The notes under the pieces were generated by a model. The model saw nothing but the letters and a program-made list of their open reading frames with translations, was not told where the DNA came from and searched no databases. From a virus (taxonomy: Duplodnaviria; Caudoviricetes), in the IMG/VR virus record IMGVR_UViG_3300032277_000005, positions 1 through 52,702 of that record: a stretch of 52,702 nucleotides of DNA. The stretch is one strand, 5' to 3'. Every line of letters begins with the position of its first letter. Within the stretch, counting starts at the first letter, position 1. A program made the translations under genes and the position numbers. Of this stretch, positions 1 to 43,433 are shown piece by piece.

Positions 1-68
1 TAACCCTTAAAGCAGCGCGTTGATTTGAGCGCAGCGAAAAGCAATCCGCCTGACTTTTGTTGTTAGGC
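1..68 (-). mobile_element. attC-like site (complete copy at 52573..52643)
   Basis: Minus reading across the origin: GCCTAAC-AACAA-AAGTCAGG...GCTGCTT-TAAGG-GTTAAGC (R''-spacer-L''...L'-spacer-R'). Confidence 0.85.
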
Positions 69-127
69 TCAGGAATTACGGTACATACTATGAATGACGA
101 TGAACTAATAGCAAAGATAAGTGAAAA
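1..127. repeat. 127-bp terminal direct repeat (copy 1); circular-assembly overlap
   Basis: 1..127 is identical to 52576..52702. Confidence 0.95.
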
Positions 128-452
128 ACTCCTCGGCTACAGGGAAGGAAGCCCAGAAAACATTATCTGTAAGATAGACGCAATGCAAGATAGAGACTCA
201 ACTCTGTGGATAGGTGCATTCCGCTATTACTGTGGTCGCATGACAATAGCTGTAAGCGGATTTTGCGAAACAATGATCAGCAACATTGAAAACATTCCAG
301 ATGAAGCAGTGTCAATAATTAAGCGCGACCTAATTGAGGCTTTTGCTGATGACGACCGGGATCGCGAAGTTGGGAATGCCGTAAAACGACTTGGTATGGA
401 CTGCGATCGGCAGAAATGGCTGGAGGTTCTAGCCGCGATAAGCGGAGCCTAA
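90..452 (+). CDS. cassette-borne hypothetical protein
   Basis: ORF 57..452, likely ATG at 90; bounded by GTTAGGCTC (62) and GAGCCTAAC (445-453). Confidence 0.75.
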   Translation: MNDDELIAKISEKLLGYREGSPENIICKIDAMQDRDSTLWIGAFRYYCGRMTIAVSGFCETMISNIENIPDEAVSIIKRDLIEAFADDDRDREVGNAVKRLGMDCDRQKWLEVLAAISGA

Positions 453-499
453 CAAAGAGATAGACGGCGCACCGCGTCCGTTGCATCGAGGTGTTATGA
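447..499 (-). mobile_element. attC-like site (short family A)
   Basis: GCCTAAC...GTTATGA hairpin; shares AGAGAT..GCATCGAGG(T/C)GTTA with sites at 2317 and 44279. Confidence 0.8.
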
Positions 500-589
500 G
501 TAATACAAGCGAACATTAAATAACGGAGATAATATGAAAACACTAGAAGAAGTACAAGCGCAGTTACTAGGCGAGAAGGAGAGTAAGTA

Positions 590-1336
590 ATGCCTAAAAT
601 CGTGAACATGGAAGGGCTAAAGTTTGGAATGTTATCCGTTGTAAATAGGGCTGGGGTCAATAGTGATGGGAGGGTAACATGGCATTGCCAGTGTGATTGC
701 GGCAATGAAAAAGTGGTTAGTGGTAAAGCCATGAGAGGGGGGGAGACTTCAAGCTGTGGCTGTCTTCGCTGGGGCGATAAACGGAAAGCGGATGACATGA
801 AAATCACAAAAGCAGACATCGAAGCAGTAGTAACGTATAACCCTGAAACCGGCGCACTGATATGGAAGGAGCGCACAGCAGAGCAGTTTGAAGATAAAAA
901 TCTTCGGCGCGCATGGAATGATCAATGGGCGGGCGGCAAAGCAGGCCACTTCGAGGCAGACGAAGGGCATGTTAGGTTGAAAATAAAAAACAGGCAGATC
1001 TACGCTCGTAGAGCTATTTACATTCTAATGACCGGGAGAAACCCACCAGGGCCATTGATATTAAAAGATGGGGACAAGGGTAATTTAAAATGGGCAAATA
1101 TCGCTGTTAAAGAAACAAAGAAGTCTCTAGCAGAGAAAAGAGCGGCGCGACTCGCAGCAAGAAAGCCTAAGCCTGTATATCCAGGTGTAGTCTATGACTG
1201 GTATGACAAGAAATGGTTAGCTGTGATAAATCTAGCCAAGTTCGTCACTATCAGGGTTGGTGTATTCGCAACAGACAGCGAGGCTATCAAGGCCAGGGCT
1301 GATAAGCTGGAATCAATGGGGCTGGCTAGCTGTTGA
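590..1336 (+). CDS. HNH/AP2-type homing-endonuclease-like protein, HNH residues degenerate
   Basis: N-terminal FGMLSV..WHCQCDCG..SCGC motif; YNPETGALIW; HNH-like segment lacking His; C-terminal YPGV..KKWLAVI..GVF AP2-like region. Confidence 0.75.
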   Translation: MPKIVNMEGLKFGMLSVVNRAGVNSDGRVTWHCQCDCGNEKVVSGKAMRGGETSSCGCLRWGDKRKADDMKITKADIEAVVTYNPETGALIWKERTAEQFEDKNLRRAWNDQWAGGKAGHFEADEGHVRLKIKNRQIYARRAIYILMTGRNPPGPLILKDGDKGNLKWANIAVKETKKSLAEKRAARLAARKPKPVYPGVVYDWYDKKWLAVINLAKFVTIRVGVFATDSEAIKARADKLESMGLASC

Positions 1337-1351
1337 TGAGAAGGTGAGCAT

Positions 1352-1425
1352 TTATAACCCCTTGCTATGCGGCGCGACGTTAGGATCGTCCGGCGCGTAG
1401 CGCGAACATGAGCAAGTTGTTATGG
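1352..1425 (-). mobile_element. attC-like site
   Basis: Minus reading CCATAAC-AACTT-GCTCATGT...GCATAGC-AAGGG-GTTATAA; extra C in L''. Confidence 0.85.
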
Positions 1426-1811
1426 CGGATTTGCACAACATTAACGACCACATGGCAAGATATTGTGAGTGTGGATGCGTGAGATTTAACCTGCTGCGTA
1501 GTGGCGCTATTGAGTGCGACGACTGCCAGCTTAAACAACCAAAACTAAATTGGAGTGAAGACATGAACCCGGATTACAAACCAGAAGCAGAAGTAACTTT
1601 TAGCGATGACCAGATTGAGCAAGGCAAGGAAATTATTCGCGCGGCGATAACCAAAAATCAGCAGTGCTTTTGGCCTGACATTGTTGCAGAGGGTAACGGC
1701 TCTCTGCCTGCTTGGGTGCTACTTAAAGCGATCAGTGAAATGCAGAAAACAAAAGAGCTACGCTTGCGCGAAGACAGCTACGAACACGCAATGGAATATA
1801 TTTTGCGGTGA
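1422..1811 (+). CDS. cassette-borne hypothetical protein with CxCxC/CxxC zinc motif
   Basis: ORF; ends GTTATGGC (1419) and GCCATAAC (1812). Confidence 0.7.
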   Translation: MADLHNINDHMARYCECGCVRFNLLRSGAIECDDCQLKQPKLNWSEDMNPDYKPEAEVTFSDDQIEQGKEIIRAAITKNQQCFWPDIVAEGNGSLPAWVLLKAISEMQKTKELRLREDSYEHAMEYILR

Positions 1812-1812
1812 G

Positions 1813-1875
1813 CCATAACGCCATAGCTAAATGGGCCACGCAGTTTGTGGCTCCAATTTCAGTGACTTGTTATAC
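1813..1875 (-). mobile_element. attC-like site
   Basis: Minus reading GTATAAC-AAGTC-ACTGAAAT...ATTTAGC-TATGGC-GTTATGG; 40 bp identical to the site at 45606. Confidence 0.9.
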
Positions 1876-1889
1876 GAGGATAAATAAAG

Positions 1890-2075
1890 ATGGATAGAAG
1901 AAACGAAGACTACGAGCTAGCTGCAAAAATTGTTGACGAAGTGCTAAATAAGTCAAGCTTGCATAGACTACCTCACGAAGACGGGACATCTCCAACCTAC
2001 TGCCTTGGGCTAGAGGAAGGAGGAACTCTGCCATATATTGCGGAGCTGTTAGCTAAACACAGGCTTGGCGTATAA
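1890..2075 (+). CDS. cassette-borne hypothetical protein
   Basis: RBS GAGG; ends GTTATACG and CGTATAAC; stop overlaps TAAC. Confidence 0.7.
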   Translation: MDRRNEDYELAAKIVDEVLNKSSLHRLPHEDGTSPTYCLGLEEGGTLPYIAELLAKHRLGV

Positions 2076-2130
2076 CGCTTTAATTAAAAGGCTGCGCTTT
2101 TCGCAGTCCGTTTTGAACTACTTGTTAGCT
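2070..2130 (-). mobile_element. attC-like site
   Basis: Minus reading AGCTAAC-AAGTA-GTTCAAAA-CGGACTGCG..CGCAGCC-TTTTAAT-TAAAGC-GTTATAC; textbook attC spacing. Confidence 0.9.
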
Positions 2131-2142
2131 GTGGAGGCTACG

Positions 2143-2322
2143 ATGAAAAAACCAACGATTGATGATTTGAAAAAAGAGCTTGAAGCTGCAAGCAAGCGGA
2201 TAGAAATTCAAGAACGGTATTTAACTGAAGCGGACACTGTGCGCCGACTTATTGTTGCAGCGGGGCTGATTGATGAGGATAAGTTTCGACAAGCAGAGGA
2301 ACTTATAAGTAAGGACAGCTAA
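2143..2322 (+). CDS. cassette-borne small coiled-coil protein
   Basis: GGAGG RBS then ATG 2143 (MKKPTIDDLKKEL); ends GTTAGCTGT and ACAGCTAAC. Confidence 0.7.
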   Translation: MKKPTIDDLKKELEAASKRIEIQERYLTEADTVRRLIVAAGLIDEDKFRQAEELISKDS

Positions 2323-2369
2323 CAGAGAGATCGGAGGCGCGTAGCGACCTCTGCATCGAGGCGTTATAG
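2317..2369 (-). mobile_element. attC-like site (family A)
   Basis: AGCTAAC-AGAGAGATC...GCATCGAGGC-GTTATAG. Confidence 0.8.
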
Positions 2370-2546
2370 ACCCGCAACAATACGGAGTGAAAGGCAATAT
2401 GAGGATAGGACAAGGCATAGCTCGTGCTGCGCTTGTGGCCGGGGCTACAGTGCTTGAGATTTTTGACAAGCCAGCGGCGGGTTTGTGGGCCGTTATTGTT
2501 GTATGGGTTTTCCTAGCAGACTGGCACCTAAAAGAGATAGGCAAAG

Positions 2547-3029
2547 ATGACTAACCCAACACACATAACAGCAGACACCCTGCCCGGCATTATCGACAAC
2601 CTGAAAGCGGCTTGTGAGTCAGACAAAGATTACCAGTCGTCAATAACGCTGTTCGATAACTCACTGAAAGCCCGCCAGAGGGCGCTGGCTAACTGTTGGT
2701 ACAAAGATATAGCCGATAGCGAGGGTTATACATCAGGCTACGCAGAGGCGCTTTGCAAATATCATTACGGGTTCCGCATCAGGTGTGAGAATGACCCGGA
2801 TTTAGAGCGCATTATTCGCAGTATGCTTGACGGCAGGGCCTACGATGCAAAGCTTAAAATAATAGAGGTGTATCGTGAGTTCTTCCCAATACTGAGAAGC
2901 AAAGACGGAATGTCCACAGAGCAGCAAGGCCGATACCTATTCGAGATACAGCGCGGTATGGGTGCAGAGGGAATATTCCTATCAACACCTAAAGAGCGAT
3001 CACTATTGAGTTACCCGGAGGCAGGATAA
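2547..3029 (+). CDS. NinB/YbcN-like recombination protein
   Basis: SLKARQRALANCWYKDIA and STEQQGRYL..I motifs; position among nin-like genes. Confidence 0.55.
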   Translation: MTNPTHITADTLPGIIDNLKAACESDKDYQSSITLFDNSLKARQRALANCWYKDIADSEGYTSGYAEALCKYHYGFRIRCENDPDLERIIRSMLDGRAYDAKLKIIEVYREFFPILRSKDGMSTEQQGRYLFEIQRGMGAEGIFLSTPKERSLLSYPEAG

Positions 3030-3307
3030 TGGCTAAGAAAACAAAAATAAGGCAGTCAGCTAGAAACGAGGCTTGTTCGCTTCGCGTATCGCCACAGTGC
3101 CAAGATGGCGAGACAGTTGTTTTCTGCCATCTAAACAGCCCGAACAAAGGCATGGGCATCAAAAGCCCTGATATTTTCGGCGTGTACGGCTGCTACTGGT
3201 GTCATCAACAACTTGACTCAGGCAATGTAAATTACAGCGACAAACTAAGGGCGCTGATGGAAACACAATACAAGCTGGTCGAAAAAGGGCTTATTAGTTA
3301 TGGGTAA
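3029..3307 (+). CDS. DUF1364/YbcO-like HNH-fold protein
   Basis: IRQSARNEACSLR..C..ETVVFCHL..GMGIK..D..GCYWCH. Confidence 0.75.
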   Translation: MAKKTKIRQSARNEACSLRVSPQCQDGETVVFCHLNSPNKGMGIKSPDIFGVYGCYWCHQQLDSGNVNYSDKLRALMETQYKLVEKGLISYG

Positions 3308-3743
3308 GAATGTTGTTATCGGGTGTGACCCAGACTCAAAAGCTCATGGCGTGGCTGTTTACATGGATGGGAGGTTGATAGAGCTACGCAGCTTTGAGCT
3401 GCTAGAGCTACAGCAATACATCGAGCAGGACTGTTGTGGTTCTAACAGTATAGAGCTGCATATCGAAAATGTTTGCGGGGTAAGTGCGGCATTCAACGCA
3501 AGGGATAGGAAAACAAATCTCAATGTGAAGTTAAAAATTGCGCAGCATATTGGAATGTGCAAGCAAGCCCAGGTTGAAGTTGAAAGAATGGCTGAGGCTA
3601 ACGGCGTGAAAGTAGTTAAGCACAAAATATCTAAGATGTGGAAAAAAGACAAAGCGCAATTTGAGAAGGTAACAGGCTGGAGTGGGCATAGTAATGAAGA
3701 CACGCGCAGTGCAAGCTGGTTTGGCTATCTAGGCTGTAAATAA
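3300..3743 (+). CDS. RuvC-like Holliday junction resolvase
   Basis: IGCDP, HIEN and NEDTRSA acidic motifs of the RNase H fold. Confidence 0.55.
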   Translation: MGKNVVIGCDPDSKAHGVAVYMDGRLIELRSFELLELQQYIEQDCCGSNSIELHIENVCGVSAAFNARDRKTNLNVKLKIAQHIGMCKQAQVEVERMAEANGVKVVKHKISKMWKKDKAQFEKVTGWSGHSNEDTRSASWFGYLGCK

Positions 3744-3757
3744 ATATAAATTAGCGC

Positions 3758-3786
3758 TTGCATTAGCGCACATAATATAGTATACT
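3758..3786 (+). promoter_or_regulatory. sigma70-type promoter
   Basis: TTGCAT-17 bp-TATACT, followed by a CCAGC..GCTGG hairpin and GGAG RBS. Confidence 0.65.
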
Positions 3787-3834
3787 GGTTTCACCAGCTA
3801 AGGGAAGCTGGCTTTTATTAAACCGGAGAAAGCT

Positions 3835-4071
3835 ATGATTTATGCACAAGTTGGAACAATGCGGAAGGCAGGGTTAGCCGCGAAGTGGGGAAGGTTGAAA
3901 GGAGGTGCGCCAGCCATGTTTGTTAGGAACCCGGCTAGCGACCTAAAACACCAGCGGGAAAAGTGGTGGCATTTTGACGAGGCCATGCAAAAGTTAATGA
4001 CCGCCGAGGGAGTGGTCAAAGGGTTTGATTCTGCGACGTTGTTGGGGGGTATTTTTAGCATTAAAGCATGA
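3835..4071 (+). CDS. hypothetical protein
   Basis: ORF with RBS downstream of promoter. Confidence 0.6.
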   Translation: MIYAQVGTMRKAGLAAKWGRLKGGAPAMFVRNPASDLKHQREKWWHFDEAMQKLMTAEGVVKGFDSATLLGGIFSIKA

Positions 4072-4319
4072 ATGATTGCGATTATTGCAGAGACAGCGAC
4101 GGCGACCTATATAGTTGCCCGAACTGTCACGGCGAAGGATTTAATATAATGACACCAAAAACAAACGCACAACTACAAAAGACCCGCGACGATAAGCAGC
4201 GGGCAATGGGGCGCACTGGGCGCAAGGTCTGGGCGACACCAGAGGAACACGCGCATATTAATCAATGCCTGGCCAAGTACCGAAAAAAGCAGGAAAGGCT
4301 AGCAAGGAAAGCACAATGA
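4068..4319 (+). CDS. hypothetical protein with CxxC pairs
   Basis: ORF coupled by ATGA overlap. Confidence 0.55.
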   Translation: MNDCDYCRDSDGDLYSCPNCHGEGFNIMTPKTNAQLQKTRDDKQRAMGRTGRKVWATPEEHAHINQCLAKYRKKQERLARKAQ

Positions 4320-4675
4320 CTGACATAACCGGAACATGGGCCACCATCCCCGACTGCCCTAAGTACGAGTGCCTTTACGATCAGTCGAAGGGTACAAAGG
4401 TGCGGTTTAAAAAGACGGGGCCCGCTATACGCAACGGGATTAGCCGAAACGGCAGAAAGGCTGGCAAGTATTTAGAGGTTGGGCATGATGGGATGTTGGC
4501 TATAAAAAATCACCCAAACATGATGGCTTGTAGATGGACACCGCAAGAGTTGTGGGAGCACACATTTAAAAGCAAGCGCCTAATCACACCGGCAGAGCGC
4601 AAAGAAATCAGAATGCGCGAGGCGGCAGAGAGAAGGGCAGCAAATCAACTAAACAGGGATATGATAAGTGAGTGA
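4316..4675 (+). CDS. hypothetical protein, NUMOD4-like N-terminus
   Basis: Likely ATG at 4316 (MTDITGTWATIPDCPKYE). Confidence 0.5.
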   Translation: MTDITGTWATIPDCPKYECLYDQSKGTKVRFKKTGPAIRNGISRNGRKAGKYLEVGHDGMLAIKNHPNMMACRWTPQELWEHTFKSKRLITPAERKEIRMREAAERRAANQLNRDMISE

Positions 4676-5096
4676 AATAATGAAGATCAGGCTGCTGTCT
4701 GATTCAGCGACAGTACCAAGCAGGGCGACCAAGGGCAGCGCTGGTTATGACCTGAGTTGTGACAAGGGTTTTATCCTACAGCCCAATGAGCGGCGACTGA
4801 TCGGCACTGGGTTGGCTATAACGCTGCCTGTAGGGTCGTGGGGCGAAGTAAGGTCACGATCAGGGTTGGCGTCAAAGTACGGCATCGACGTTCAGGCAGG
4901 GACGATAGACCAGGATTATATCGGGGAGTTAATGGTGCTGCTGGTTAACAACGGCAATAGGCCGCTACGGTGTGAAACCGGCGACAGGATTGCACAGCTA
5001 GTCGTCCAAAAATGCATGAAGCCAAATATTATGGTAGTGCCGTCGCTGGATAAAACAGACCGTGGCGATGGTGGCTTTGGGCACACTGGGAAATAA
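4668..5096 (+). CDS. dut: trimeric dUTPase
   Basis: All five motifs: AGYDL, RSG, GTIDQDYIGE, GDRIAQL, RGDGGFGHTG. Confidence 0.95.
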   Translation: MSEIMKIRLLSDSATVPSRATKGSAGYDLSCDKGFILQPNERRLIGTGLAITLPVGSWGEVRSRSGLASKYGIDVQAGTIDQDYIGELMVLLVNNGNRPLRCETGDRIAQLVVQKCMKPNIMVVPSLDKTDRGDGGFGHTGK

Positions 5097-5151
5097 CGCT
5101 TTAGCTAAATCGCGCAGCGTAGCGGAGTCGAATTTCAGCGCGTTGTTAGGC
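5091..5151 (-). mobile_element. attC-like site abutting the dut stop codon
   Basis: Minus reading GCCTAAC-AACGC-GCTGAAAT...ATTTAGC-TAAAGC-GTTATTT. Confidence 0.9.
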
Positions 5152-5164
5152 GCATTACGGAGTA

Positions 5165-5395
5165 ATGAGAATGGGCATAAATAGATATAAAAAAGACCAC
5201 AATATAGATGGGTGGCATGTAGTGGACACTGAGCGCGGAGGGATATTGCACGCCGATGATATTGTTAAACGCTTAAACGAATATGAGGCTCTTTTGGCTG
5301 AGGCCGATGAGTACTTAAGCATCAATGAATTAACAAGCATTGGCAGTGGAAGCATTCTTCATCAGAAGTTTATAGCGATAACAGGCAAATACTAA
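5165..5395 (+). CDS. cassette-borne hypothetical protein
   Basis: ORF; ends GTTAGGCG (5145) and CGCCTAAC (5396-5403). Confidence 0.7.
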   Translation: MRMGINRYKKDHNIDGWHVVDTERGGILHADDIVKRLNEYEALLAEADEYLSINELTSIGSGSILHQKFIAITGKY

Positions 5396-5442
5396 CGCCT
5401 AACAGCACAGGCAAGCTAGCTGCAATCAACAGGGCAACCCCA

Positions 5443-5685
5443 ATGAACCCAACACTTAAATACAGATGCGGAGAGTGCGGCGACTCGCACAACGACCACG
5501 ACGAAGCACTCGAGTGCTGCCCTCCACAAATAAACGAAGTGTATCTGTGTGGGCACTGCCATGAAGACTACGGCCACGACGAAGACGCCGCCGAAAATTG
5601 CTGCGATGACGTTGACCCGGACGCCCTACCAATAGTAAGCCAACAAGAACTCGAAGCTGCAGGCCAAATGAGGCTCTGCGCATAA
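5443..5685 (+). CDS. Cys-rich acidic small protein
   Basis: Two CxxC...CC repeats. Confidence 0.7.
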   Translation: MNPTLKYRCGECGDSHNDHDEALECCPPQINEVYLCGHCHEDYGHDEDAAENCCDDVDPDALPIVSQQELEAAGQMRLCA

Positions 5686-5738
5686 CGCTTTAGGTAAAGC
5701 GCCGAGGTACGAGGTCGATTTTGACCGACTTGTTATAT
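5680..5738 (-). mobile_element. attC-like site
   Basis: Minus reading ATATAAC-AAGTC-GGTCAAAA...CTTTACC-TAAAGC-GTTATGC. Confidence 0.9.
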
Positions 5739-5751
5739 TTTGGAGGTTGGT

Positions 5752-5940
5752 ATGAAATTTGAAGATAGCACTGGATGGATTTGGTTTTTTGTTGACGAGT
5801 ATGGCGATGTAGGCACTGAATTTTTTTGGCTTGAAGAAAAGGAAGGTGAAATGCCGTACCAAATGGAAAAGGCTAGTTGGGATACTGAGAATAAAAGCTC
5901 TATACCAACAAGGGCAAGAATAGCGGAATTAAAGATATAA
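5752..5940 (+). CDS. cassette-borne hypothetical protein
   Basis: GGAGG RBS and ATG 5752; ends GTTATAT and ATATAAC. Confidence 0.7.
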   Translation: MKFEDSTGWIWFFVDEYGDVGTEFFWLEEKEGEMPYQMEKASWDTENKSSIPTRARIAELKI

Positions 5941-6022
5941 CCGCGGATTTAACCGGAGAGGAATGGAGCAATGAGTGAAACGAATAGCGGAATGACGAAT
6001 CCGGTTGAAACCTTTGTTAGGG
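5935..6022 (-). mobile_element. attC-like site (family B) encoding RBS, ATG and leader of the next gene
   Basis: ATATAAC...GGAG..ATGAGTGAAACG...GACGAATCCG...GTTAGGG. Confidence 0.85.
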
Positions 6023-6306
6023 TGCCGTGGCCTGAGGATAAATTGCCCTTGAAATTGAAAAACCCTAAGTGCCCGATTTGTGGCGGGGCATTATTTATTA
6101 CTGGGGTTAACGCTTGTGAGCAGGAGGATAACGGCGACTGGATAGCAAGCGAGATTGACATTGATTGCGAAAACGAGCCGGACATTGACAGTGACGAATG
6201 GGAAGACTGGCACAAGTGGCACTACAGCATGCCATATGTGGATTGGCTGCCGATAGACCGGCAGATTTTGAAAATGGTGCAGAGGACGTTTTACTTTGCA
6301 CCCTAA
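5971..6306 (+). CDS. cassette-borne zinc-ribbon protein starting inside attC
   Basis: CPICGG motif; ends GTTAGGGTGC and GCACCCTAAC. Confidence 0.7.
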   Translation: MSETNSGMTNPVETFVRVPWPEDKLPLKLKNPKCPICGGALFITGVNACEQEDNGDWIASEIDIDCENEPDIDSDEWEDWHKWHYSMPYVDWLPIDRQILKMVQRTFYFAP

Positions 6307-6360
6307 CCTTTACTTAACCGGTGCAGCTTTGCTGCATCCGCGTTTAAGTTGTTGTTATGT
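6301..6360 (-). mobile_element. attC-like site
   Basis: Minus reading ACATAAC-AACAA-CTTAAACGCGGATGCAGC-AAA-GCTGCACCGGTTAAG-TAAAG-GTTAGGG. Confidence 0.9.
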
Positions 6361-6383
6361 TTCGATTGTACAGATTCTAAGCT

Positions 6384-6445
6384 GTGAACTTATTTCACTT
6401 TATTTGTGTTATTTGCTTGACTATGTGAACTTAGTGCACTATAAT
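6384..6445 (+). promoter_or_regulatory. cassette-internal sigma70 promoter with two operator-like imperfect palindromes
   Basis: TTGACT(6417)-17 bp-TATAAT(6440); GTGAACTTATTTCAC (6384) and GTGAACTTAGTGCAC (6425). Confidence 0.8.
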
Positions 6446-6492
6446 TAGTTTCAAGAGTTAGGGAATGGCCCTAACAAAACGGAGCTAAGACA

Positions 6493-6681
6493 ATGATTAA
6501 ATCAGTAGACGAACTAAAAGCAGGCGACATTCTTAAAAACACTAATCATGGTTTTGAGATTGAAATTAAAGAGATTGGTAAAAAGAACACCCGCTACATC
6601 AACTTAGAGACTGGTGAGAAAGTAAAAAGCTTCACTACAAAATTCAACTTCATGCTACGCGAAGGAGTGTTTGTTAAGTGA
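6493..6681 (+). CDS. small basic hypothetical protein
   Basis: GGAG RBS; first gene of the promoter-bearing cassette. Confidence 0.7.
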   Translation: MIKSVDELKAGDILKNTNHGFEIEIKEIGKKNTRYINLETGEKVKSFTTKFNFMLREGVFVK

Positions 6682-7121
6682 ACGCAAAACAGACCAGATT
6701 AGCCCGACAAATGCTGGGCTTAAACCAAACCGAGTTTGCTGCACTGCTTGGCTGGACAAGCAAAAGAAACATAGTGAATTTAGAGCGCGGCGATAAAGAA
6801 GTAATGACACAAACAGCTTTAGCAATTGAATGCTTACTAAGAAGAAATAACAAATTTGGAGAGTTTGAGATGATTAATAAAATGCAGCCAGTTTTGGATT
6901 TTATATTAACTGAGATTAAGCGCGTTAATGGAAGCCGATCCGACAATACCACCATTTCTCAAGACGAAACAAATCAAGAGCTGGTTGATATTTTTCACGA
7001 TACTGCAAATAAGTTTACTGATATTGACTTTGAATTAACTGACAGCGAGGACGATCTAATAGAGCTTTTTGGCTACAAGGGCTATTGCTCTATTCGTGAA
7101 GCTGAAAGCGGTGCGTATTAG
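6678..7121 (+). CDS. XRE-family HTH regulator with C-terminal extension
   Basis: ARQMLGLNQTEFAALLG..IVNLERG. Confidence 0.8.
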   Translation: MNAKQTRLARQMLGLNQTEFAALLGWTSKRNIVNLERGDKEVMTQTALAIECLLRRNNKFGEFEMINKMQPVLDFILTEIKRVNGSRSDNTTISQDETNQELVDIFHDTANKFTDIDFELTDSEDDLIELFGYKGYCSIREAESGAY

Positions 7122-7123
7122 AA

Positions 7124-7185
7124 ACATAACCGATAGCTTAACGGCTGGCGCTTTTGCCAGTCCGATTTACAGCGCCTTGTTAGGC
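7124..7185 (-). mobile_element. attC-like site
   Basis: Minus reading GCCTAAC-AAGGC-GCTGTAAA...GTTAAGC-TATCG-GTTATGT. Confidence 0.85.
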
Positions 7186-7199
7186 GCGGGAGAGACTAG

Positions 7200-7409
7200 A
7201 TGCCAGTTACAGATTACAGCGATGCCGATTTAGTTAAGCGAGCGGTAAGAAACGCAAAACCAAACATAAACGGAACCGCACCTCGATGGGTTGCCGTAAT
7301 GGATACTTTCGGCCTTGGCAGAACATACGCATACGAATTATGCCGGTTGCATGACTTGAATCCAGACGACCCGATTGAGGGCGCACGTTGTATTTCCTGC
7401 AACCCTTAG
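7200..7409 (+). CDS. cassette-borne phage hypothetical protein
   Basis: ORF; ends GTTAGGCGC and GCGCCTAAC. Confidence 0.7.
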   Translation: MPVTDYSDADLVKRAVRNAKPNINGTAPRWVAVMDTFGLGRTYAYELCRLHDLNPDDPIEGARCISCNP

Positions 7410-7410
7410 C

Positions 7411-7488
7411 GCCTAACCCCATAAACACGCGGAAACGAAACAAGCGAAGCGGCGTGTAGTGAATCGCCGTGATTTTACATTGTTATAT
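7411..7488 (-). mobile_element. attC-like site (own cassette apparently truncated)
   Basis: GCCTAAC...CACGCGG..CCGTGATTTT..GTTATAT; no matching ATATAAC end downstream. Confidence 0.75.
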
Positions 7489-7581
7489 TTTGGAGATTTT
7501 ACGATGAGTGAGTTACAAACGGTAGCGGCAAGGCTCTGCAAACAATTGAGATGTTAATTAAGGCGATGAAGGTGAGAGATA

Positions 7582-7914
7582 ATGATTAAATCAAAACGCG
7601 GCGTATCAATCGACAACTGTCGGCCCGAGATACTTATAGCCTTGATCTCAGTTGACCCTATCTATGCCAAGCATGGTGTAGATACTGTGGTCACGTCCGG
7701 GTCAGAGCCTTACAAGCACAGTGCTTTGCGCTCGGCACACTATAGGGGTGACGCTGTGGACTTGAGAATCAAAAACGTAGAGGTCGATAAAAGGGCGCGG
7801 GTATTCCAAGCAATCAAGCGCAAGTTAGGCCCGGATTTTGTTGTTCTGCACGAGGGTAAGGGTAAGGCGTGGGAGCATATTCACATTCATTGGTCGCCTA
7901 TATTCCACAGCTAG
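7582..7914 (+). CDS. endolysin, peptidase M15 family
   Basis: SAHYRGDAVD and HIH zinc-binding motifs. Confidence 0.85.
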   Translation: MIKSKRGVSIDNCRPEILIALISVDPIYAKHGVDTVVTSGSEPYKHSALRSAHYRGDAVDLRIKNVEVDKRARVFQAIKRKLGPDFVVLHEGKGKAWEHIHIHWSPIFHS

Positions 7915-7974
7915 CATAAGCTCTGGTTAGTGGTATAATGCAAAGCCTATGCGTCGCAAGGGCGCTCAAACAAG

Positions 7975-8490
7975 ATGGCCGGAATGGCATTAAGGGCAGC
8001 GATGAGTGACGACGACCAGGGTATATCTATGCTAAGAGATGAGATGTCTCAGATTAAGAGCTGGATAAAGGCGACAGATGCAACAATTAAAGGTTTTCTG
8101 TCACGACTGGTCGATGCGGAGGAGCGGGTAGCTCGCGCAGAGGAGCGAGGCGCGGCAGCCGAAGAGAAGACAGCGACCCGTATGGCTTGGCTGATTATGC
8201 TATTTATAACGAGCTTAGGCGGTCTTGTTGTGATGATGTTGGATGTTTCGGCAAGATCTGATGAAAAGATCAACGCTATCGAAGATAAAACGATGGAGGT
8301 ATTAATTGCCGTTCACGGTAGCAGCGTACTAATGCAACAACATCTCATTACCGCCGGTAATGTTAAAAAGGAGATCTATCACGCTGTTGAGGCTGTAGAA
8401 AAGTCATTGCAAACATCAATAGAAAGAACCCTCAACGCTGTAAAAGACAATAGATCCGCGATACTTAATCACGAAAGGGCGGAAAGGTAA
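7975..8490 (+). CDS. single-TM coiled-coil membrane protein (lysis region)
   Basis: Hydrophobic WLIMLFITSLGGLVVMML segment. Confidence 0.55.
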   Translation: MAGMALRAAMSDDDQGISMLRDEMSQIKSWIKATDATIKGFLSRLVDAEERVARAEERGAAAEEKTATRMAWLIMLFITSLGGLVVMMLDVSARSDEKINAIEDKTMEVLIAVHGSSVLMQQHLITAGNVKKEIYHAVEAVEKSLQTSIERTLNAVKDNRSAILNHERAER

Positions 8491-8858
8491 TGGCATTCCT
8501 GACGACGCTCGATGAATTTGATTACAAGCCTTTAAACAACGGGCTTGTCGAGAATCAGGGTAAGCTGGTCTGGCAAGACCCCGTTACACACGCAGTCTAC
8601 ACAGTTCCCGATGGGTTCCCGTCTAATTTAATGTCGTACCCTTGGTGGTCTGGCTGGCTATTCAATAAATTAGACAATACTGGCCGCGCTTCAATGCTGC
8701 ATGACTATCTAGTCGATAAGACAATCGGTAATAGCATGTGGCGCGATGATCAGTACAGGGCAGCTCTAAAAGCTGACGGTGTTAACAAATTTAAGCGAGG
8801 GATTGCTTATACCGGCCTCCGTATTGTTTCTGGCCCCAGTGGGATTAAAATCAGATGA
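8490..8858 (+). CDS. DUF1353-like protein
   Basis: VPDGF..S.P..ASMLHDYL..D..AL..GV. Confidence 0.7.
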   Translation: MAFLTTLDEFDYKPLNNGLVENQGKLVWQDPVTHAVYTVPDGFPSNLMSYPWWSGWLFNKLDNTGRASMLHDYLVDKTIGNSMWRDDQYRAALKADGVNKFKRGIAYTGLRIVSGPSGIKIR

Positions 8859-9103
8859 ATAAAATCATAGCGGCATTGCTAATCTCTGTGCTTTCCGGTT
8901 GCGCTGAATACCAAATAATCGCAGCCGAGAAGGGCGCACAGGCAGCGGACGACTCACTAAGAGCTGCACGGTGGGGTCATTGCTCCGCAGCATCAGCGGC
9001 ATCGCTAGAACGCAAGTACCAACTGTACAGCAACCCAAACGGCCCCTTAGCTACGGCCTGGCGGGAGCTGTGCTACAACTCAGACGAAGTTATCGAGGAT
9101 TAG
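8855..9103 (+). CDS. lipoprotein (possible spanin component)
   Basis: Signal peptide with LSGC lipobox. Confidence 0.6.
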   Translation: MNKIIAALLISVLSGCAEYQIIAAEKGAQAADDSLRAARWGHCSAASAASLERKYQLYSNPNGPLATAWRELCYNSDEVIED

Positions 9104-10253: not shown

Positions 10254-11327
10254 ATGGGTATTTTAATACCTAAAAGGCGAAGGATTTGGAAAGAGAAGCC
10301 CTTAGAGGGCGCTAGATTTCCTAGCTTTGTAGCGTCAGGATTTTTAATCGACGAACGATCTGGCGACCCCTTCGATCATGGAGCGCAGAGTGAAGGCGGG
10401 GCGCTTGGCACCTTTTCTTGGTTTGAAAAAGCGGGCGTTCCCGCAGTTAGCGCGACCGTTAGAGATCAATTGTGCTTATCCGGGGCAAGAAGCGCAACCA
10501 CTCATGCACTGGTTATCGATTTTACCGTAGAAGACCACGATCTTAACAACTACACAGGGTATCTATCTGGGGGGCTTCGCACCGGCACTGTTACTGGTAA
10601 TGCCACTGATGAAACCATTACGCTGGGGCCATTTGGCAGTGGTGATTACAGATATGTTAAAGATATATTTGGCCCAGGTGAATACACGCTCGTACTGTGG
10701 TTTGATGGACAGGATTACCAGTTTTCAGTTAATGGCAGTAAATTAGCTGCATTTGATGGTGCCGGTGGTGGAATAACTTATCTTGTAGATACGACTATTT
10801 CGGGGTCTGGTAAGGGCTACTCAGGAAGCCGCAGGGTATTCTATAAAAGTATTTATATAATAGATCAACCAGTTGATGATGATTTTGCAGTTTCATTATC
10901 CGAAAACCCCTACCAAATACTAAAGCCCCGCCGCAAGTTCTGGGTAGTGCCTAGTGCAACAGACACCACGGCCCCTATACTATCCTCACCCACAGGCACA
11001 AAGACCGGCAGCACTACAGCAGACGGCACAGTATCAACAGACGAAGCCAATGGCACGTTATACTATCTAGCGTCAGAGAACGCGACAGAGACAGCGGCAA
11101 CGATTAAGGCGGGTAGTAGTCAGGCGGTAACAGCAACGGGTGTGCAGAACGTATCATTCACAGGCTTAACGCCATCGACATTGTATTATGCGCACTACGT
11201 TCATGATGACGCAGCTATCAACGAATCAAATGTACAAACGAGCGCAAGCTTTACGACAGATGCCGCCTCGAGTGTAATCGCCATATTTAGACGACGAATT
11301 GAAGGGCAAGGTAATGCTTTTAGGTAA
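10254..11327 (+). CDS. putative virion protein, LamG-like plus FN3-like domain
   Basis: Beta-rich N-terminal part; DTTAPILS..TDEANGTLYY..TGLTPSTLYY FN3-like region. Confidence 0.55.
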   Translation: MGILIPKRRRIWKEKPLEGARFPSFVASGFLIDERSGDPFDHGAQSEGGALGTFSWFEKAGVPAVSATVRDQLCLSGARSATTHALVIDFTVEDHDLNNYTGYLSGGLRTGTVTGNATDETITLGPFGSGDYRYVKDIFGPGEYTLVLWFDGQDYQFSVNGSKLAAFDGAGGGITYLVDTTISGSGKGYSGSRRVFYKSIYIIDQPVDDDFAVSLSENPYQILKPRRKFWVVPSATDTTAPILSSPTGTKTGSTTADGTVSTDEANGTLYYLASENATETAATIKAGSSQAVTATGVQNVSFTGLTPSTLYYAHYVHDDAAINESNVQTSASFTTDAASSVIAIFRRRIEGQGNAFR

Positions 11328-13599
11328 ATACAACCAAGAGAAAACAGTAAGGTTTCGCCTCTTTCAAGTAGATGGTGTTGATTTTGAGTCAGCCGCTACA
11401 TTTGCCGCTGGTGATGTGAAGATCATGAAAGATGAGGGAGTGGAGGCTAACACCACCAATCTGCCCACAGATGAGGGCCAAGGCTATTCACTTGTCTTAA
11501 CCGCCACAGAAATGAGCGCGGCTCGAATAGAGATTTATATTGTCGATCAAACAGCTACAAAAGTGTGGCTCGATACCGGGTTGTCTATTGAGACCTACGG
11601 CAACGCCAGCGCAGAACACGCCTTCGACTTAGACACAGCAAGTACAGCCCAAACAGCCGATCACACAGCAGGCATTGCAGATATACCGACCGTGGCAGAA
11701 TTCAATGCGAGAACATTGGCCGCAGCGGATTACTTCGATCCAGCTACTGACACAGTTGCAGCTGTTACAACAGTTGCGAGCGTAAGCGGTTCGGTCGGTA
11801 GTGTAACTGGTAGCGTGGGAAGCGTAACGGGGGCCGTGGGCAGTGTTACAGCGCAAGTCTCGGCAGACGTAACCGCTATCAGCGGCGACTCGACGGCGGC
11901 TGATAATTTAGAGCTTCAATACGATGGAACAGGACTTGTAGGTGATACATACCCGGCCACACAAACACAGGTCGGCCAGTTATCAACAGGATCGGCGTCA
12001 ATAAGTAAAGCGGCATCTACAGCAGTTATTACAGCAGGTGCAGAGACCAACACTTACACAAGCACAAAATCGCGTGATGGTGTTTACCACGAAATTGCAG
12101 ACGCGGCTGGGGTTATTGACTTTTATTATGAATTCGATATTGGAGGCAATGGCGTAGGCGCTGATGTGCAGTTTTTTGGCAGAATGACAGGGGTAAATGA
12201 CAACCTAGATATCTTTGCTTACGATTGGGCTAATACAACATGGGATCAGGTTGGCACTACAGAAGGCGAAAATACGACAACAGATTGGGCTGGGTTCGTA
12301 AGTTTAGACGTATCGCATACTGGCACAGGTGCAAATGCGGGTAAAGTTCGCGTTAGAGCTTACAAAGCGTCAGGCTTAACGTCGGCTGTATTGTATATGG
12401 ATCAAATCTATATCAGTTACGCTGTAGTTGCTGAATCAGTTGGCTACGCTCAAGGCCGGGTGTGGATAAACACCGACGCAGCAAACACGAATACAAACCT
12501 ATACCGTGATGGCACAGCAGATAATCCAGTGAGCACCTTAACTGCGGCTAAGACGATTGCGGATAGCTTAGGAATAAAAGACTTCCACGTTACCTCAAAC
12601 TCGACGATAACATTGCTGGCCGATCTTAACGGCTACAATGTCTATGGTGTTGGGTACGCACTAAACACAGCAGGCTATGACCTTGCAGGCACACATATAT
12701 TACATTCAAGCCCTATCAACGGGACTGTAACAACAGCAGGAAGCTCTGATCACTGGGACGCGCTAGATTCGATTATAGATACAGTAACAGCCGACGACGC
12801 GCATCTTACGAATTGCATATTTATCGGTACTTACACTTTTGGCACCAGCGCCATTGTTACGCCAGAAGTCAATATGAACCACTGTAAGTCGGGCATCGCA
12901 GGAGCATCAGCCCCAGTATTCACAAAAACACCAGGCGCTACCCTCACATGGTCGGTGCGAGATTGGAAGGGAGGCATGACTATCAACGGTCTGGAAGCTG
13001 GCGATACTGTTACTATCGGTGGTGGCGAGCTAGGCACAATCACGCTTAACGGTGCAGATGCGAGTGTTGAGGTAAGGGGTATTGCTAAAGCAGTAACCAA
13101 CAATCTCACAGGGTCGCCTACAGTAAACCTCGATGGTGTTGTTATAGCCTCGGATGTGGCTAGCATATCCTCTGAGATAGGCACGGCAGGCGCAAACTTA
13201 ACCGATCTAGGCGGCATGTCCTCAACAATGAGGTCGCAGGTCAACACAGAGGCCGATACAGCCCTCACAGACTACGACGGGCCTACCAACACAGAGTTCG
13301 AGGCTAGAACCCCGACAGCGGCGCAATTAGCCTACATTGTGGCCAACGCAGCAACAGGGATGCCCGTCACATTCACTACTAGCGGCGGGTCGACTACAGC
13401 AGCGGTTTTAAATAACGTTGATGGCGCTGCGGCGAGTGCCACAGATGATCAATATAATGGAAGGTTGCTTGTATTCACTGACGGGACTCTGAAAGGGTGT
13501 GTAACAGATATAACCGATTATGTCGGGTCTACTACTACCGCAACCATCACAGCTATCCCGTTCGCGCCAGAATCCACTCATAACGCGAGACTGTTATAA
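11314..13599 (+). CDS. fibre/spike-like virion protein
   Basis: Thr/Ala/Gly-rich; SVTGSVG tandem repeats; DGTADNPVSTL motif. Confidence 0.6.
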   Translation: MLLGKYNQEKTVRFRLFQVDGVDFESAATFAAGDVKIMKDEGVEANTTNLPTDEGQGYSLVLTATEMSAARIEIYIVDQTATKVWLDTGLSIETYGNASAEHAFDLDTASTAQTADHTAGIADIPTVAEFNARTLAAADYFDPATDTVAAVTTVASVSGSVGSVTGSVGSVTGAVGSVTAQVSADVTAISGDSTAADNLELQYDGTGLVGDTYPATQTQVGQLSTGSASISKAASTAVITAGAETNTYTSTKSRDGVYHEIADAAGVIDFYYEFDIGGNGVGADVQFFGRMTGVNDNLDIFAYDWANTTWDQVGTTEGENTTTDWAGFVSLDVSHTGTGANAGKVRVRAYKASGLTSAVLYMDQIYISYAVVAESVGYAQGRVWINTDAANTNTNLYRDGTADNPVSTLTAAKTIADSLGIKDFHVTSNSTITLLADLNGYNVYGVGYALNTAGYDLAGTHILHSSPINGTVTTAGSSDHWDALDSIIDTVTADDAHLTNCIFIGTYTFGTSAIVTPEVNMNHCKSGIAGASAPVFTKTPGATLTWSVRDWKGGMTINGLEAGDTVTIGGGELGTITLNGADASVEVRGIAKAVTNNLTGSPTVNLDGVVIASDVASISSEIGTAGANLTDLGGMSSTMRSQVNTEADTALTDYDGPTNTEFEARTPTAAQLAYIVANAATGMPVTFTTSGGSTTAAVLNNVDGAAASATDDQYNGRLLVFTDGTLKGCVTDITDYVGSTTTATITAIPFAPESTHNARLL

Positions 13600-15218: not shown

Positions 15219-15701
15219 ATGCAAGGTTTGTCAAAAGAAAATAAGGCTGGAAGGCCAACAAAATACAAAGAAGAGTACAGTGAGCAGGTAGAAAAATTAT
15301 GTAGACTAGGCTCTACTGACGAAGATATTGCTGATTTTTTTAATGTGTCGGTGGCAACTATTGGCAATTGGAAAAATGATTATTCTGGTTTTTTAGAGGC
15401 CATAAAAAGAGGTAAGGTTGTCGCGGATGCAGAGGTGGCGGACAGGCTGTACAAGAGGGCGACTGGCTATAGCCATCCCGATGTGCATGTGAGTAATTTT
15501 CAGGGCGAGGTAACATTAACGCCAATCAAGAAGAATTACCCGCCTGATACTACAGCGGCTATCTTTTGGTTGAAAAATCGCCAGAAAGAGTATTGGCGTG
15601 ATAAGCAGCATGTGGAGCAGTCTGGCAGCGTCAGTGTGGCTATTGCGGATATTCTTGGGGAGATAGACGGCACAAGCAAAGGCCTGCCAGTTGACGAATG
15701 A
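15219..15701 (+). CDS. terS: terminase small subunit
   Basis: GRPTKY, HTH, and PPDTTAAIFWLKNRQ motif; precedes TerL. Confidence 0.9.
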   Translation: MQGLSKENKAGRPTKYKEEYSEQVEKLCRLGSTDEDIADFFNVSVATIGNWKNDYSGFLEAIKRGKVVADAEVADRLYKRATGYSHPDVHVSNFQGEVTLTPIKKNYPPDTTAAIFWLKNRQKEYWRDKQHVEQSGSVSVAIADILGEIDGTSKGLPVDE

Positions 15702-17169: not shown

Positions 17170-17519
17170 TTGAGGTCGATATAACACTGGACGATATGAA
17201 AGAGGCCGTGCATAACGATCAGGTGTGCAGGCATTTTGGCGCAGCTATCTCAAAAGCCTACCCTGGGCGCAAGTGGCTTGTTGAGGTGTTGGATAGAGGC
17301 TACCTCTGCTACATCAAGATTCCCACTATCTCTATGGAGTACGGTATCGCGGTGAAGTTAAGTAAAACCCTGAGAAGTGATACAATCAACTGCGTAAGAT
17401 CGGCAGGAGAGCTGCTAGAGCGATTCAAGCTAACACGCGGCCAGACTGATAACGCCGATGTATTCCAGCTACCATCGAACTACAAAGGCGTAATAGGCGC
17501 AGAGAAGGGCGAAATCTAA
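17166..17519 (+). CDS. hypothetical protein
   Basis: Coupled ORF between terL and portal. Confidence 0.65.
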   Translation: MIEVDITLDDMKEAVHNDQVCRHFGAAISKAYPGRKWLVEVLDRGYLCYIKIPTISMEYGIAVKLSKTLRSDTINCVRSAGELLERFKLTRGQTDNADVFQLPSNYKGVIGAEKGEI

Positions 17520-21018: not shown

Positions 21019-21032
21019 TCAGGTAAATTATC

Positions 21033-21971: not shown

Positions 21972-21976
21972 TTACT

Positions 21977-21995
21977 GCCCCCTTCGGGGGGCTTT
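21977..21995 (+). terminator. intrinsic terminator
   Basis: GCCCCC stem with TTCG loop followed by TTT. Confidence 0.7.
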
Positions 21996-22010
21996 ATAGA
22001 GGAAATAATT

Positions 22011-22370
22011 ATGAGTTATGCAAACCCTACGACAGTTGGCTATCGTTTTCCGGCTGCCACATTGTCATCTGCGGCGGTAATTGGTCGCATTCAAGCACCA
22101 GACGGCAAGAAAGGTCGAGTAGTTGACGTGTCCTTGGTTACTACTACAGCAACCACAGTGGCCGCCTGTACTGTAACGATTGGCACAGGCGCAGACGCAG
22201 ACGCTTACGCGACCCAAGCTGTACCTGTTACAGCCATCAATCTTGGCGTACAAGGCACTACAGCCGTTTACAATCACGAAATCCCAGAAGACACTTTAGT
22301 ATTAGTGACTGCGGGTGGTGAGTGTACGGCTGGTGCAGGCGACGTTACTGTAATCATCGACTGGTACTAA
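22011..22370 (+). CDS. putative capsid decoration/cement protein
   Basis: Small beta-rich ORF after the capsid gene. Confidence 0.5.
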   Translation: MSYANPTTVGYRFPAATLSSAAVIGRIQAPDGKKGRVVDVSLVTTTATTVAACTVTIGTGADADAYATQAVPVTAINLGVQGTTAVYNHEIPEDTLVLVTAGGECTAGAGDVTVIIDWY

Positions 22371-43217: not shown

Positions 43218-43430
43218 TCACTCTCCAGCTTTCGCTATAAATTCACCGCACCACCATATCTCTCGAACTGTCGGGAAGTAAAAATTATAAGTGTCGAGAA
43301 ATGCAAGCTCGCTATCTTGCGCCTGTCTTACAGGAGGGTATCGCCTACATTCCCCTAGCGTGAAAATTTCGTCGTCTCCATCGGAAAGAAAATCCCAGTA
43401 TTTGCAATCAATACATTTATCCTTTTTCAT
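43218..43430 (-). CDS. small Cys-rich phage protein
   Basis: CIDCKYW..GECRRYPP..WCGEF. Confidence 0.7.
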   Translation of the reverse strand: MKKDKCIDCKYWDFLSDGDDEIFTLGECRRYPPVRQAQDSELAFLDTYNFYFPTVREIWWCGEFIAKAGE

Positions 43431-43433
43431 GGG

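Follow-up and report, generated by a model that had tools for sequence, protein, structure and literature searches.

Integron-type attC sites of apparently inverted polarity separate the early genes of a marine-type phage

Why the small early genes of a phage should be parted from one another by palindromes resembling the attC recombination sites of integrons, and which strand of these palindromes would recombine, are the questions raised by the stretch of DNA analysed here. This window comprises all 52,702 nucleotides (nt) of the virus record IMGVR_UViG_3300032277_000005 and contains imperfect palindromes of 49–88 nt between the small open reading frames (ORFs) of two early arms, one on each strand, amounting to 20–22 attC sites in total. 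An earlier note on this DNA had claimed that the cassette genes are systematically antisense to the polarity of their attC sites. From sequence comparisons, we consider it probable (roughly three in four) that these are genuine integron attC sites of the chromosomal type of Cycloclasticus-related bacteria, that they form two arrays devoid of an integrase, that their bottom strand is the mRNA-sense strand, and that the units between them are exchanged via the integrase of a host.

Read along the gene strand, the phage sites follow a common order of xxxTAAC, a spacer of 5–8 nt, a 7-nt box, an 8-nt box with one extra base, a 5-nt spacer and GTTAxxx. They contain the R'' (RYYYAAC) and R' (GTTRRRY) motifs, with TAAC and GTTA being invariant in 14 aligned sites, and the R helix was paired in 99.1% of the cells over 55 phage sites. 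The consensus structure calculated by RNAalifold showed a 7-bp L helix with a single bulge, located only on the 3' arm opposite TAAC on the gene strand. In the alignment of the 55 sites, which was itself fitted to the covariance model, compensatory changes were present at all seven L-box pairs, 95.3% of the cells were paired compared to 77.3% after shuffling, and the covariation score of 0.461 (vs. 0.110) was not exceeded in any of 500 shuffles. Scans for complementary R boxes or perfect stems and sliding-window folding were either too loose or too strict, and covariance models were used instead.

The cassettes of class-1 integrons provide the reference for polarity. On their gene strand, they show xxxTAAC, a 5-nt spacer, the 8-nt L'' with the extra base, the 7-nt L', a spacer of 5–6 nt and GTTAxxx. 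The rule cited in the earlier note, that the 8-nt L'' with its extrahelical base follows R'' and a 5-bp spacer on the attC top strand and that genes precede R'' on that strand, proved to be correct for the aadA1 cassette of R100 and for nine more class-1 cassettes from four plasmids. The phage sites show this top-strand order on the strand opposite their genes. The integrase is reported to cleave the bottom strand at 5'-AAC-3', and the description of wild-type attC implies extrahelical bases on the arm opposite the AAC triplet (PMC5027507). Both sites quoted as examples in the note were found as written: at 2070–2130 the minus strand reads AGCTAAC-AAGTA-GTTCAAAA..TTTTAAT-TAAAGC-GTTATAC among plus-strand genes, and at 46307–46391 the plus strand reads GCATAAC-AACAC-GCTCAAGG..CCTTAGC-TCTGG-GTTATAT among minus-strand genes. 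At the first site, the TAA of ORF 1890–2075 is the TAA|C in the 5' R box, and ORF 2143–2322 comes next; at the second one, the R box contains the TAA of ORF 46386–46625, and the start of ORF 46170–46364 lies in the loop.

We built a first covariance model (R1) from 14 window sites in their gene-strand reading and searched the window with the filters switched off. The search returned 27 matches at E ≤ 10, and the 19 matches at E ≤ 0.11 were all located on the gene strand, five of them at sites not used for training; the highest score on the opposite strand of any window site was 12.1 bits. Applied to 110,044 bases of five class-1 integron plasmid loci, R1 produced 12 matches, consisting of all ten true attC sites with scores of 22–48 bits, each on the strand opposite the annotated cassette genes, and two others of 14 bits. 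As a negative control, 75,348 bases of five RecT-related phage loci (L004–L008) were searched, yielding no match at E ≤ 1.

These searches bear on the possibility that the hairpins are regulatory elements of RNA or DNA, such as processing sites, attenuators or translational couplers, that resemble attC by convergence and whose polarity is simply that of the transcribed strand. Such elements would be expected where the sites are found, namely in every intergenic gap of the two operons, and they would agree with the slightly better folding of the sense strand and with the ribosome-binding site and start codon of the next ORF within the loops of four sites (5935–6022, 44736–44817, 45320–45388 and 46307–46391). 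No Rfam family matched the sites at its gathering score, which also speaks for this explanation. It does not account for the fact that a model made from phage sites recovers ten out of ten class-1 attC sites with hardly any further match in 110 kb, nor for the same site alleles in bacterial integron arrays or a phage unit located at an attI (see below), and we regard it as highly improbable, although a regulatory role could be added on top of the attC role. The loops of the same four sites have a common GAGCGAAGCGA-like stretch, so that the ORFs start with similar residues (MSE...), and the attC 3' arm is translated there.

A second model (R2), made only from the ten class-1 attC sites in their bottom-strand orientation, served as a proxy for a covariance model of known attC sites. 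Its best 16 matches in the window (E ≤ 0.0045) were all on the gene strand, and 19 of the 20 sites scored higher there, the reverse of a canonical cassette, in which the ORF lies on the top strand of an attC located downstream. Since 19 of 19 R1 matches (E ≤ 0.11) pointed the same way, both models back the identification of the coding strand as the bottom strand. The claim that every site is inverted has to be restricted: it stood for most of them, but not for three short symmetric sites left ambiguous by R2, nor for the site at 7411–7488, which did not reach significance. When both strands were folded with DNA parameters, the gene strand was more stable at 18 of the 20 window sites by a mean of 0.85 kcal/mol, and the bottom strand was more stable at nine of the ten class-1 sites by a mean of 2.47 kcal/mol.

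The positions of the gene ends gave the same picture. At 17 of the 20 window sites, the 5' R box on the strand called by the model contains or adjoins the end of an ORF of at least 40 codons, compared to one site for the opposite strand. Over 72 phage sites from six inverted records, gene ends were found 62 times on the bottom strand, four times on the top strand and six times on neither, compared to none, nine and one for the ten class-1 sites and to four, 28 and ten for 42 sites from seven chromosomal array loci in the Cycloclasticus-related family of genome G006. Altogether, the gene ends lie on the top strand at 37 of the 52 bacterial sites. The difference between phage and bacterial counts corresponds to a Fisher p of about 4e-16, where the phage arrays are not independent draws. 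Three of the four ORFs behind the bacterial bottom-strand ends look spurious, and none of the four matches phages.

It may be argued that the polarity is canonical after all, with each attC belonging to the preceding gene, the crossover falling at the GTT that precedes the following gene, and the strand being misassigned. The layout of a gene followed by a site with the stop codon in its first R box indeed resembles canonical cassettes, the three symmetric sites are tied, and the left edge of one block shared between a phage and an integron (G005/L058, see below) lies on the GTT side. Yet R2 was trained on class-1 bottom strands with annotated gene strands, it calls the bacterial arrays and that of Tetrasphaera phage TJE1 canonical, and a block exchanged in nature (6307–7129) comprises its upstream attC and stops short of the downstream one. 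We therefore rate this explanation as extremely improbable. At the level of sequence, the comparisons confirm that the early genes of the window are separated by genuine integron attC sites with inverted polarity and that the predicted recombining strand is the gene strand.

The same arrangement was found in other phages, among them four uncultured records (G002–G005). A pattern scan of viral records with the window sites yielded ten loci, of which five contained arrays; the loci L013, L017, L020, L021 and L022 had no R1 match at E ≤ 0.1. One of these is G003, a relative of the window with 58–60% identical portal, 65% identical terminase and 62% identical capsid proteins, which showed 19 R1 matches on two arms. 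Another phage with an SU10 portal (G002) showed 15 matches, the temperate-type phage G004 with an HK97-type capsid and a phage integrase showed ten, and the fragment G005 with terminase and portal-like genes showed four. In Pseudoalteromonas phage H101, whose attC sites have been demonstrated to function with IntI1 (PMC9892861), four R1 and three R2 matches were obtained, all on the annotated gene strand. The model strand was the gene strand in every array of G002–G005 and H101, and all 55 R2 matches at E ≤ 0.01 on six phage records were on the gene strand. Phage TJE1 (NC_019930, sites 244–1519) showed three R2 matches on the minus strand with orf1–orf3 on the plus strand, which is the canonical arrangement.

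With its 20–22 attC sites and no integron integrase, the window represents a cluster of attC sites lacking integron integrases (CALIN). It is not a complete integron, which would have intI, attI and Pc beside the array: no match to the integron integrase model TIGR02249 was obtained at E ≤ 0.001 in the whole record, attI and Pc not being searched separately. Among bacterial genomes, a pattern scan returned 32 loci, with an array present only in L058 and one weak match in L043; the remaining loci look like chance matches. L058 is a contig of 4.8 kb from a genome of the Cycloclasticus-related family. It codes for an integron integrase with a score of 433.6 bits (cut-off, 265), and its cassettes are located on one side of this gene, with the attC bottom strands opposite the cassette direction. 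Judged by these features, L058 is a real integron. Some of its sites have R-box and spacer letters in common with window sites, among them those of site 2070–2130. R1 matches were present in 20 of the 22 genomes of the family, the chromosomal arrays of which have canonical polarity under R2. The window sites are 79–86% identical to attC sites in these genomes, and DNA-level matches of window positions 1–8000 to them consisted of attC sites only.

L058 contains two reverse-oriented cassettes. The earlier note had proposed a search of bacterial integrons for the ORFs of the window as reverse cassettes, and one reverse cassette of phage sequence was found: the first, Pc-facing cassette of L058 is identical to phage contig G005 over 281 of 281 nt, and the phage-identical gene faces away from the cassette direction. 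The identical block ends at AGCTAA|C. In L058, this end adjoins the conserved intI–attI segment, and the similarity of that segment to other genomes of the family likewise breaks off at this GTTA core. The second reverse cassette (4050–4700, minus strand) codes for a DNA methyltransferase matching the phage family phrog_67 (2e-65), which fits a phage origin of reverse cassettes. As a further observation, the segment that separates intI from the first cassette of L058 (1330–1431; about 100 nt) recurs in 16 of the 22 genomes G006–G027, at up to seven places in each, and nearly all copies stop at the same GTTA core; these copies may represent surplus attI-like sites or a small repetitive element.

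Natural variants of the window indicate where the units are joined. We compared contigs of four other runs (X2–X5) with window positions 1–9000, where parts not covered by a contig are uninformative; X1, which may be the source of the window's DNA, and X6, with a share of 0.06, do not enter the evidence. A block with its edges at 6302–6306 and 7130–7132 recurs with at least 99% identity in X3, X4 and X5, which belong to three other metagenome studies. Its flanks are unlike on both sides in X3 and X5, and in X4 the left piece starts at the contig end. The block corresponds to C6307 to TAA7129, comprising the upstream attC (6301–6360, plus strand; R1 51.7 bits, R2 18.6 vs. 11.9 bits), which moves with the two ORFs 6493–6681 and 6678–7121, and excluding the downstream attC (7124–7185, plus strand; R1 52.5, R2 18.5 bits; 86% identical to an attC of G016), where the likeness stops at 7129|7130. 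In X2, one contig joins position 2323 to a diverged copy of the sequence from 7418 onward, with the 5.1 kb between these two TAA|C points missing, and in others the flank changes at 2320 or the likeness is lost at C1358 of TTATAAC. The element at 7411–7488 (plus strand), which has TAAC and GTTAT ends and is non-significant with both models (R2 7.5, 9.6 bits), is probably a diverged attC-like site and serves as the junction in this natural variant; it also recurs on its own in X3, X4 and X5. At the TAA|C breakpoints, only 4–7 nt are common to both sides.

Exchange between different phages was also apparent. The window and its relative G003 have the structural genes in common and no ORF of the early arms, and a tblastn search of the early-arm ORFs against the other phage records (E ≤ 1e-5) returned nothing except an 18-residue stretch representing attC read as protein. 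In G003, the terminase gene and the structural gene after it are separated by an insert of 3.2 kb containing five sites (L024 359–2217, record 20359–22217); the counterparts of these two genes in the window are adjacent (15691–17169 and 17166–17519). The unrelated phages G003 and G004 contain a 110-amino-acid cassette of 97% identity (93.8% over 385 nt); its likeness ends on the 3' side at ATATAA|C and starts on the 5' side inside the upstream attC. The proposed crossover at the TAA|C of the upstream gene is thus backed by natural breakpoints, namely those of the 6307–7129 block, of the X2 join 2323/7418 and of AGCTAA|C in G005 and L058. As for the proposed unit of attC, start, gene and TAA, the block 6307–7129 conforms to it by including its upstream and leaving out its downstream attC; it is too narrow for several attC-to-attC intervals of the ORF list, which contain 2–7 ORFs, and it does not describe the G005/L058 block, in which the attC body is not shared.

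These junctions might also have arisen if the sites served mainly as short homology patches for phage recombination, their polarity being passively inherited from one ancestral inverted array. A RecT protein is encoded in the minus-strand arm, attC bodies are 96–98% alike between phages whose flanks show no likeness, an 11-nt stretch occurring in both contexts contains the 5' edge of the G005/L058 block, and the 5' edge of the G003/G004 block falls within the loop of an attC. However, homologous exchange does not need and would not preserve a bulged L box with compensatory changes at seven of seven pairs or the asymmetry of 5- and 6-nt spacers, one junction is the attI junction of a real integron, the TAA|C breakpoints have only 4–7 nt in common, and five RecT-related phage loci lack such sites. 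We consider this explanation unlikely.

Several observations weigh against integrase-mediated exchange of inverted units as we envisage it. Because TJE1 is canonical, inversion is no general rule for phages, and the inverted records may all draw on the same one or two pools of cassettes and hence be non-independent samples. The three short symmetric sites (447–499, 2317–2369 and 44279–44327) are near ties with R2 and give no independent polarity. The phage hairpins are weak, with -3 to -16 kcal/mol compared to -14 to -34 kcal/mol for class-1 sites (DNA parameters), and many of their minimum-energy folds do not have the attC shape. The evidence on breakpoints comes from assembled contigs, and two X2 breakpoints, at 1825 (6 nt inside a site) and at 565 (outside the sites), are not at TAA|C. 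The identity between G005 and L058 begins at ACTT-GTTAGCT in the 3' R box, and the attC bodies upstream of it are unrelated; since the upstream attC body has not moved with the gene, a second kind of crossover or a short-homology exchange must also occur. Finally, attC bodies alone are 96–98% identical between phages in front of different genes.

If the integron reading is adopted, the bottom, recombinogenic strand of each site would be the sense strand, on which the 5'-AAC arm of the site opens the sequence and the bulged L'' arm closes it. As a consequence, the cleavage point AA|C would coincide with the TAA stop codon of the upstream gene, the mobile unit would consist of C, attC, ribosome-binding site, gene(s) and TAA, and the attC would move together with the gene that follows, forming its 5' leader, instead of being carried along as a 3' tail by the gene that precedes. 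The comparisons show the identity and polarity of the sites, their occurrence in several unrelated phages, the exchange of units and the breakpoints at TAA|C. Anatomy and breakpoints agree with an exchange of the integrase type at the AA|C of the sense strand, and we infer that an integron integrase supplied by the host would excise and insert these units and swap them between phages infecting the same cell and the integron of the host. Within the phage genome, the units would be read through within the early operon; at a bacterial attI they would face Pc, and such cassettes would be silent from Pc in a host integron, as supposed in the earlier note.

The persistence of the polarity may be explained by the way in which units are inserted. 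Recombination between two attC sites would keep the polarity, a single cassette pool would impose one convention on all phages trading in it, and only promoterless units reading with the phage operon would be retained. Polarity-keeping insertion together with the need of promoterless units to be read within an operon would therefore lock the phage trading network into one convention; TJE1, whose host is unrelated, follows the opposite one. As part of the sense strand, the bottom strand would be the non-template strand and, if the genes follow the replication fork, also the lagging-strand template. In Vibrio cholerae, a bottom strand on the lagging-strand template is reported to raise folding and excision (PMC13108822); in the phage, this configuration would favour a high turnover of units. 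We tentatively extend this to a wider picture, which we regard as possible without yet favouring it: marine phages may hold their own pool of mirror-polarity, 'attC-first' cassettes with the stop codon as crossover, shuffled between unrelated phages by host integrases, and reverse-oriented cassettes in bacterial integrons may be captured phage genes, antisense to Pc.

The individual sites of the plus-strand arm start with an attC cut by the window start (1–68), which scored 9.9 bits with R1 and 10.3 bits with R2, both on the cut site; it is the same sequence as the attC at 52573–52643 because the window ends overlap by 127 nt. The complete copy contains the TAA of ORF 52141–52578 and scored 20.5 bits with R1 and 19.8 vs. 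7.4 bits with R2. The preceding attC at 52070–52133 (R1 41.6, R2 36.1 bits) has a body 96.6% identical to an attC of G005, where it stands before a different gene. The short symmetric, attC-like site at 447–499 is of type B, with 5-nt spacers on both sides, and has the TAA of ORF 57–452 in its 5' R box; it was used for training (R1 40.0 bits), and R2 left its polarity unresolved (15.5 bits on plus vs. 16.4 on minus). A second type B site at 2317–2369, with the TAA of ORF 2143–2322 in its 5' R box, scored 31.4 bits with R1 and was tied with R2 (11.8 vs. 11.4). Further attC sites are located at 1352–1425, downstream of the HNH-endonuclease ORF 590–1336 (R1 23.3 bits, non-training; R2 14.7 bits), at 1813–1875 (R1 60.7, R2 29.2 bits) and at 2070–2130, the first example of the note (R1 58.0 bits; R2 32.6 bits on plus and no minus match). 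The top-scoring site of the window (5091–5151; R1 66.9, R2 44.6 bits) has the TAA of ORF 4668–5096, and the next one (5680–5738; R1 60.2, R2 33.5 bits), with the TAA of ORF 5443–5685, is 79% identical to an attC of G006. It is followed by an attC with a long loop (5935–6022; R1 17.7, R2 22.5 bits, non-training), the ribosome-binding site and start in the loop being those of ORF 5971–6306.

On the minus-strand arm, all sites are on the minus strand. The third type B site (44279–44327) lies among minus-strand genes and scored 36.9 bits with R1 and 20.8 on minus vs. 16.1 on plus with R2. The attC at 44534–44590 (R1 46.3 bits; R2 19.3 vs. 11.0 bits) has the TAA of ORF 44585–44797, the start of which is in the loop of the neighbouring attC at 44736–44817 (R1 37.5 bits, non-training; R2 30.4 vs. 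7.4), which in turn has the TAA of ORF 44812–45072. Likewise, the attC at 45083–45154 (R1 12.2, R2 23.4 bits) has the TAA of ORF 45149–45367, and the GTG start of this ORF is in the loop of the attC at 45320–45388 (R1 50.2, R2 34.3 bits). The remaining sites are the attC at 45606–45670 (R1 55.1, R2 14.5 bits), the one at 45864–45919 with the TAA of ORF 45914–46177 (R1 38.6, R2 28.2 bits), and the second example of the note at 46307–46391 (R1 40.2 bits, non-training; R2 42.8). A near-identical attC allele occurs once per arm in opposite orientation (1813–1875 and 45606–45670), the two copies differing mainly in the first spacer; in a contig of run X2, the spacer of the 45606–45670 copy precedes the genes of the 1813–1875 copy.

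The sites are embedded in a set of phage genes including those for an SU10-type portal, a large terminase, a capsid protein and RecT, and the phage is of SU10 type and virulent-looking. The window is labelled as a complete virus record with terminal repeats in its collection. Its ends overlap exactly by 127 nt (1–127 = 52576–52702), leaving about 52,575 unique bases, which identifies it as a circular assembly, and it represents the complete, circularly assembled genome of a marine-type phage of about 52.6 kb. The 'direct terminal repeat' 1–127/52576–52702 is the outcome expected of a circularised assembly and need not be a physical repeat; an attC spans the junction. According to the ORF list, plus-strand genes extend from 49486 across the circular junction to 43040 and minus-strand genes from 49119 down to 43218. 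The plus-strand early arm (49486–52702 and on across the junction to about 8 kb) consists of small ORFs parted by attC sites, as delimited by the ORF list, the GC skew and PHROG matches. The minus-strand early arm (43218–49119; ORF list, Pfam and negative GC skew) contains the recT gene (46834–47955, minus strand; Pfam match 1.4e-22), followed by eight small ORFs delimited by attC sites. The GC skew tracks the gene strand, and an attempt to derive the replication direction from it was dropped because replication and transcription are inseparable in this respect.

Seven cassette ORFs match PHROG families on the gene strand, including an HNH endonuclease and a transcriptional regulator. The ORF of the HNH endonuclease (590–1336; phrog_374, phrog_99) forms a unit between two attC sites, a homing-type gene within a second kind of mobile unit. 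The structural module ends with a single ORF of 2565 codons (35343–43040), which shows a weak match to G003 (28% over 670 residues). In the divergent gap between the arms (49180–49300), there is a very stable stem-loop of about -38 kcal/mol (100-nt window, RNA parameters), flanked by A/T runs, which could terminate transcription in both directions or belong to an origin. A blastn search of window positions 10254–13599 against the phage collection gave no match.

Integrons are usually viewed as devices by which bacteria capture genes, with the reading of the cassettes from Pc being ensured by the integrase's choice of strand. In the present case, the same attC sites appear to organise the fast-evolving early genes of several unrelated phages, with the rule reversed. 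This would offer a mechanism for the exchange of modules among phages that requires no homology, and it predicts that cassettes pass in both directions between phages and the integrons of their hosts; one cassette is present in identical form on both sides. A gene on the bottom strand would be a simple signature for phage-derived cassettes in bacterial arrays, and the integron integrase, if the reading is true, would act as a shared service for the exchange of phage accessory genes.

Modular exchange at intergenic hairpins has a parallel in T4-type phages, whose intergenic promoter/stem-loop repeats shuffle modules, are thought to act by homologous recombination and carry promoters. The window resembles them in having repeated intergenic hairpins that bound exchangeable small early genes; in contrast to the T4-type repeats, its sites have the anatomy of integron attC and are also found in bacterial integrons. 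With the class-1 sites (aadA1, aadA2, aadB), they have in common the R boxes, the spacers of 5 and 6 nt and the 7- and 8-nt L boxes with one extra base, whereas the class-1 cassettes differ in carrying the gene on the top strand and the attC after the gene, in their far more stable hairpins and in the presence of intI1 and attI1 beside the array.

CALINs have already been reported in virulent phages, with 17 of them containing at least two sites each (Qi, Rajabal, Ghaly, Tetu, Gillings 2023, PMC9892861). Five of six phage sites tested there recombined with attI1 under IntI1, the bottom strands outdoing the top strands, and the cassette direction of H101 and TJE1 was called 'most typical of bacterial arrays' (PMC9892861). 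The window is like these CALINs in having attC sites between small phage genes and no integron integrase, and their H101 is inverted under R1 and R2; it differs by its 20–22 sites on two arms. A word search of the main text of PMC9892861, as distinct from its figures and supplements, found no mention of the gene strand relative to the attC strand. Full-text searches found no published statement of phage arrays with genes on the attC bottom strand, nor a published report of cassettes common to phages and an integron, and the text of PMC9892861 mentions none shared between phages. In sedentary chromosomal integrons, reverse-oriented cassettes are known, for example toxin-antitoxin cassettes that include a promoter (PMC13108822), and like the phage units they have the gene on the attC bottom strand. 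Such bacterial cassettes are a minority (four of 42 sites here, three of the four ORFs looking spurious) and need a promoter of their own, whereas in the phages the inverted arrangement is the rule, no need for a promoter is visible, and the units are read through within an operon. Phage-borne attC clusters and reverse chromosomal cassettes are both already known.

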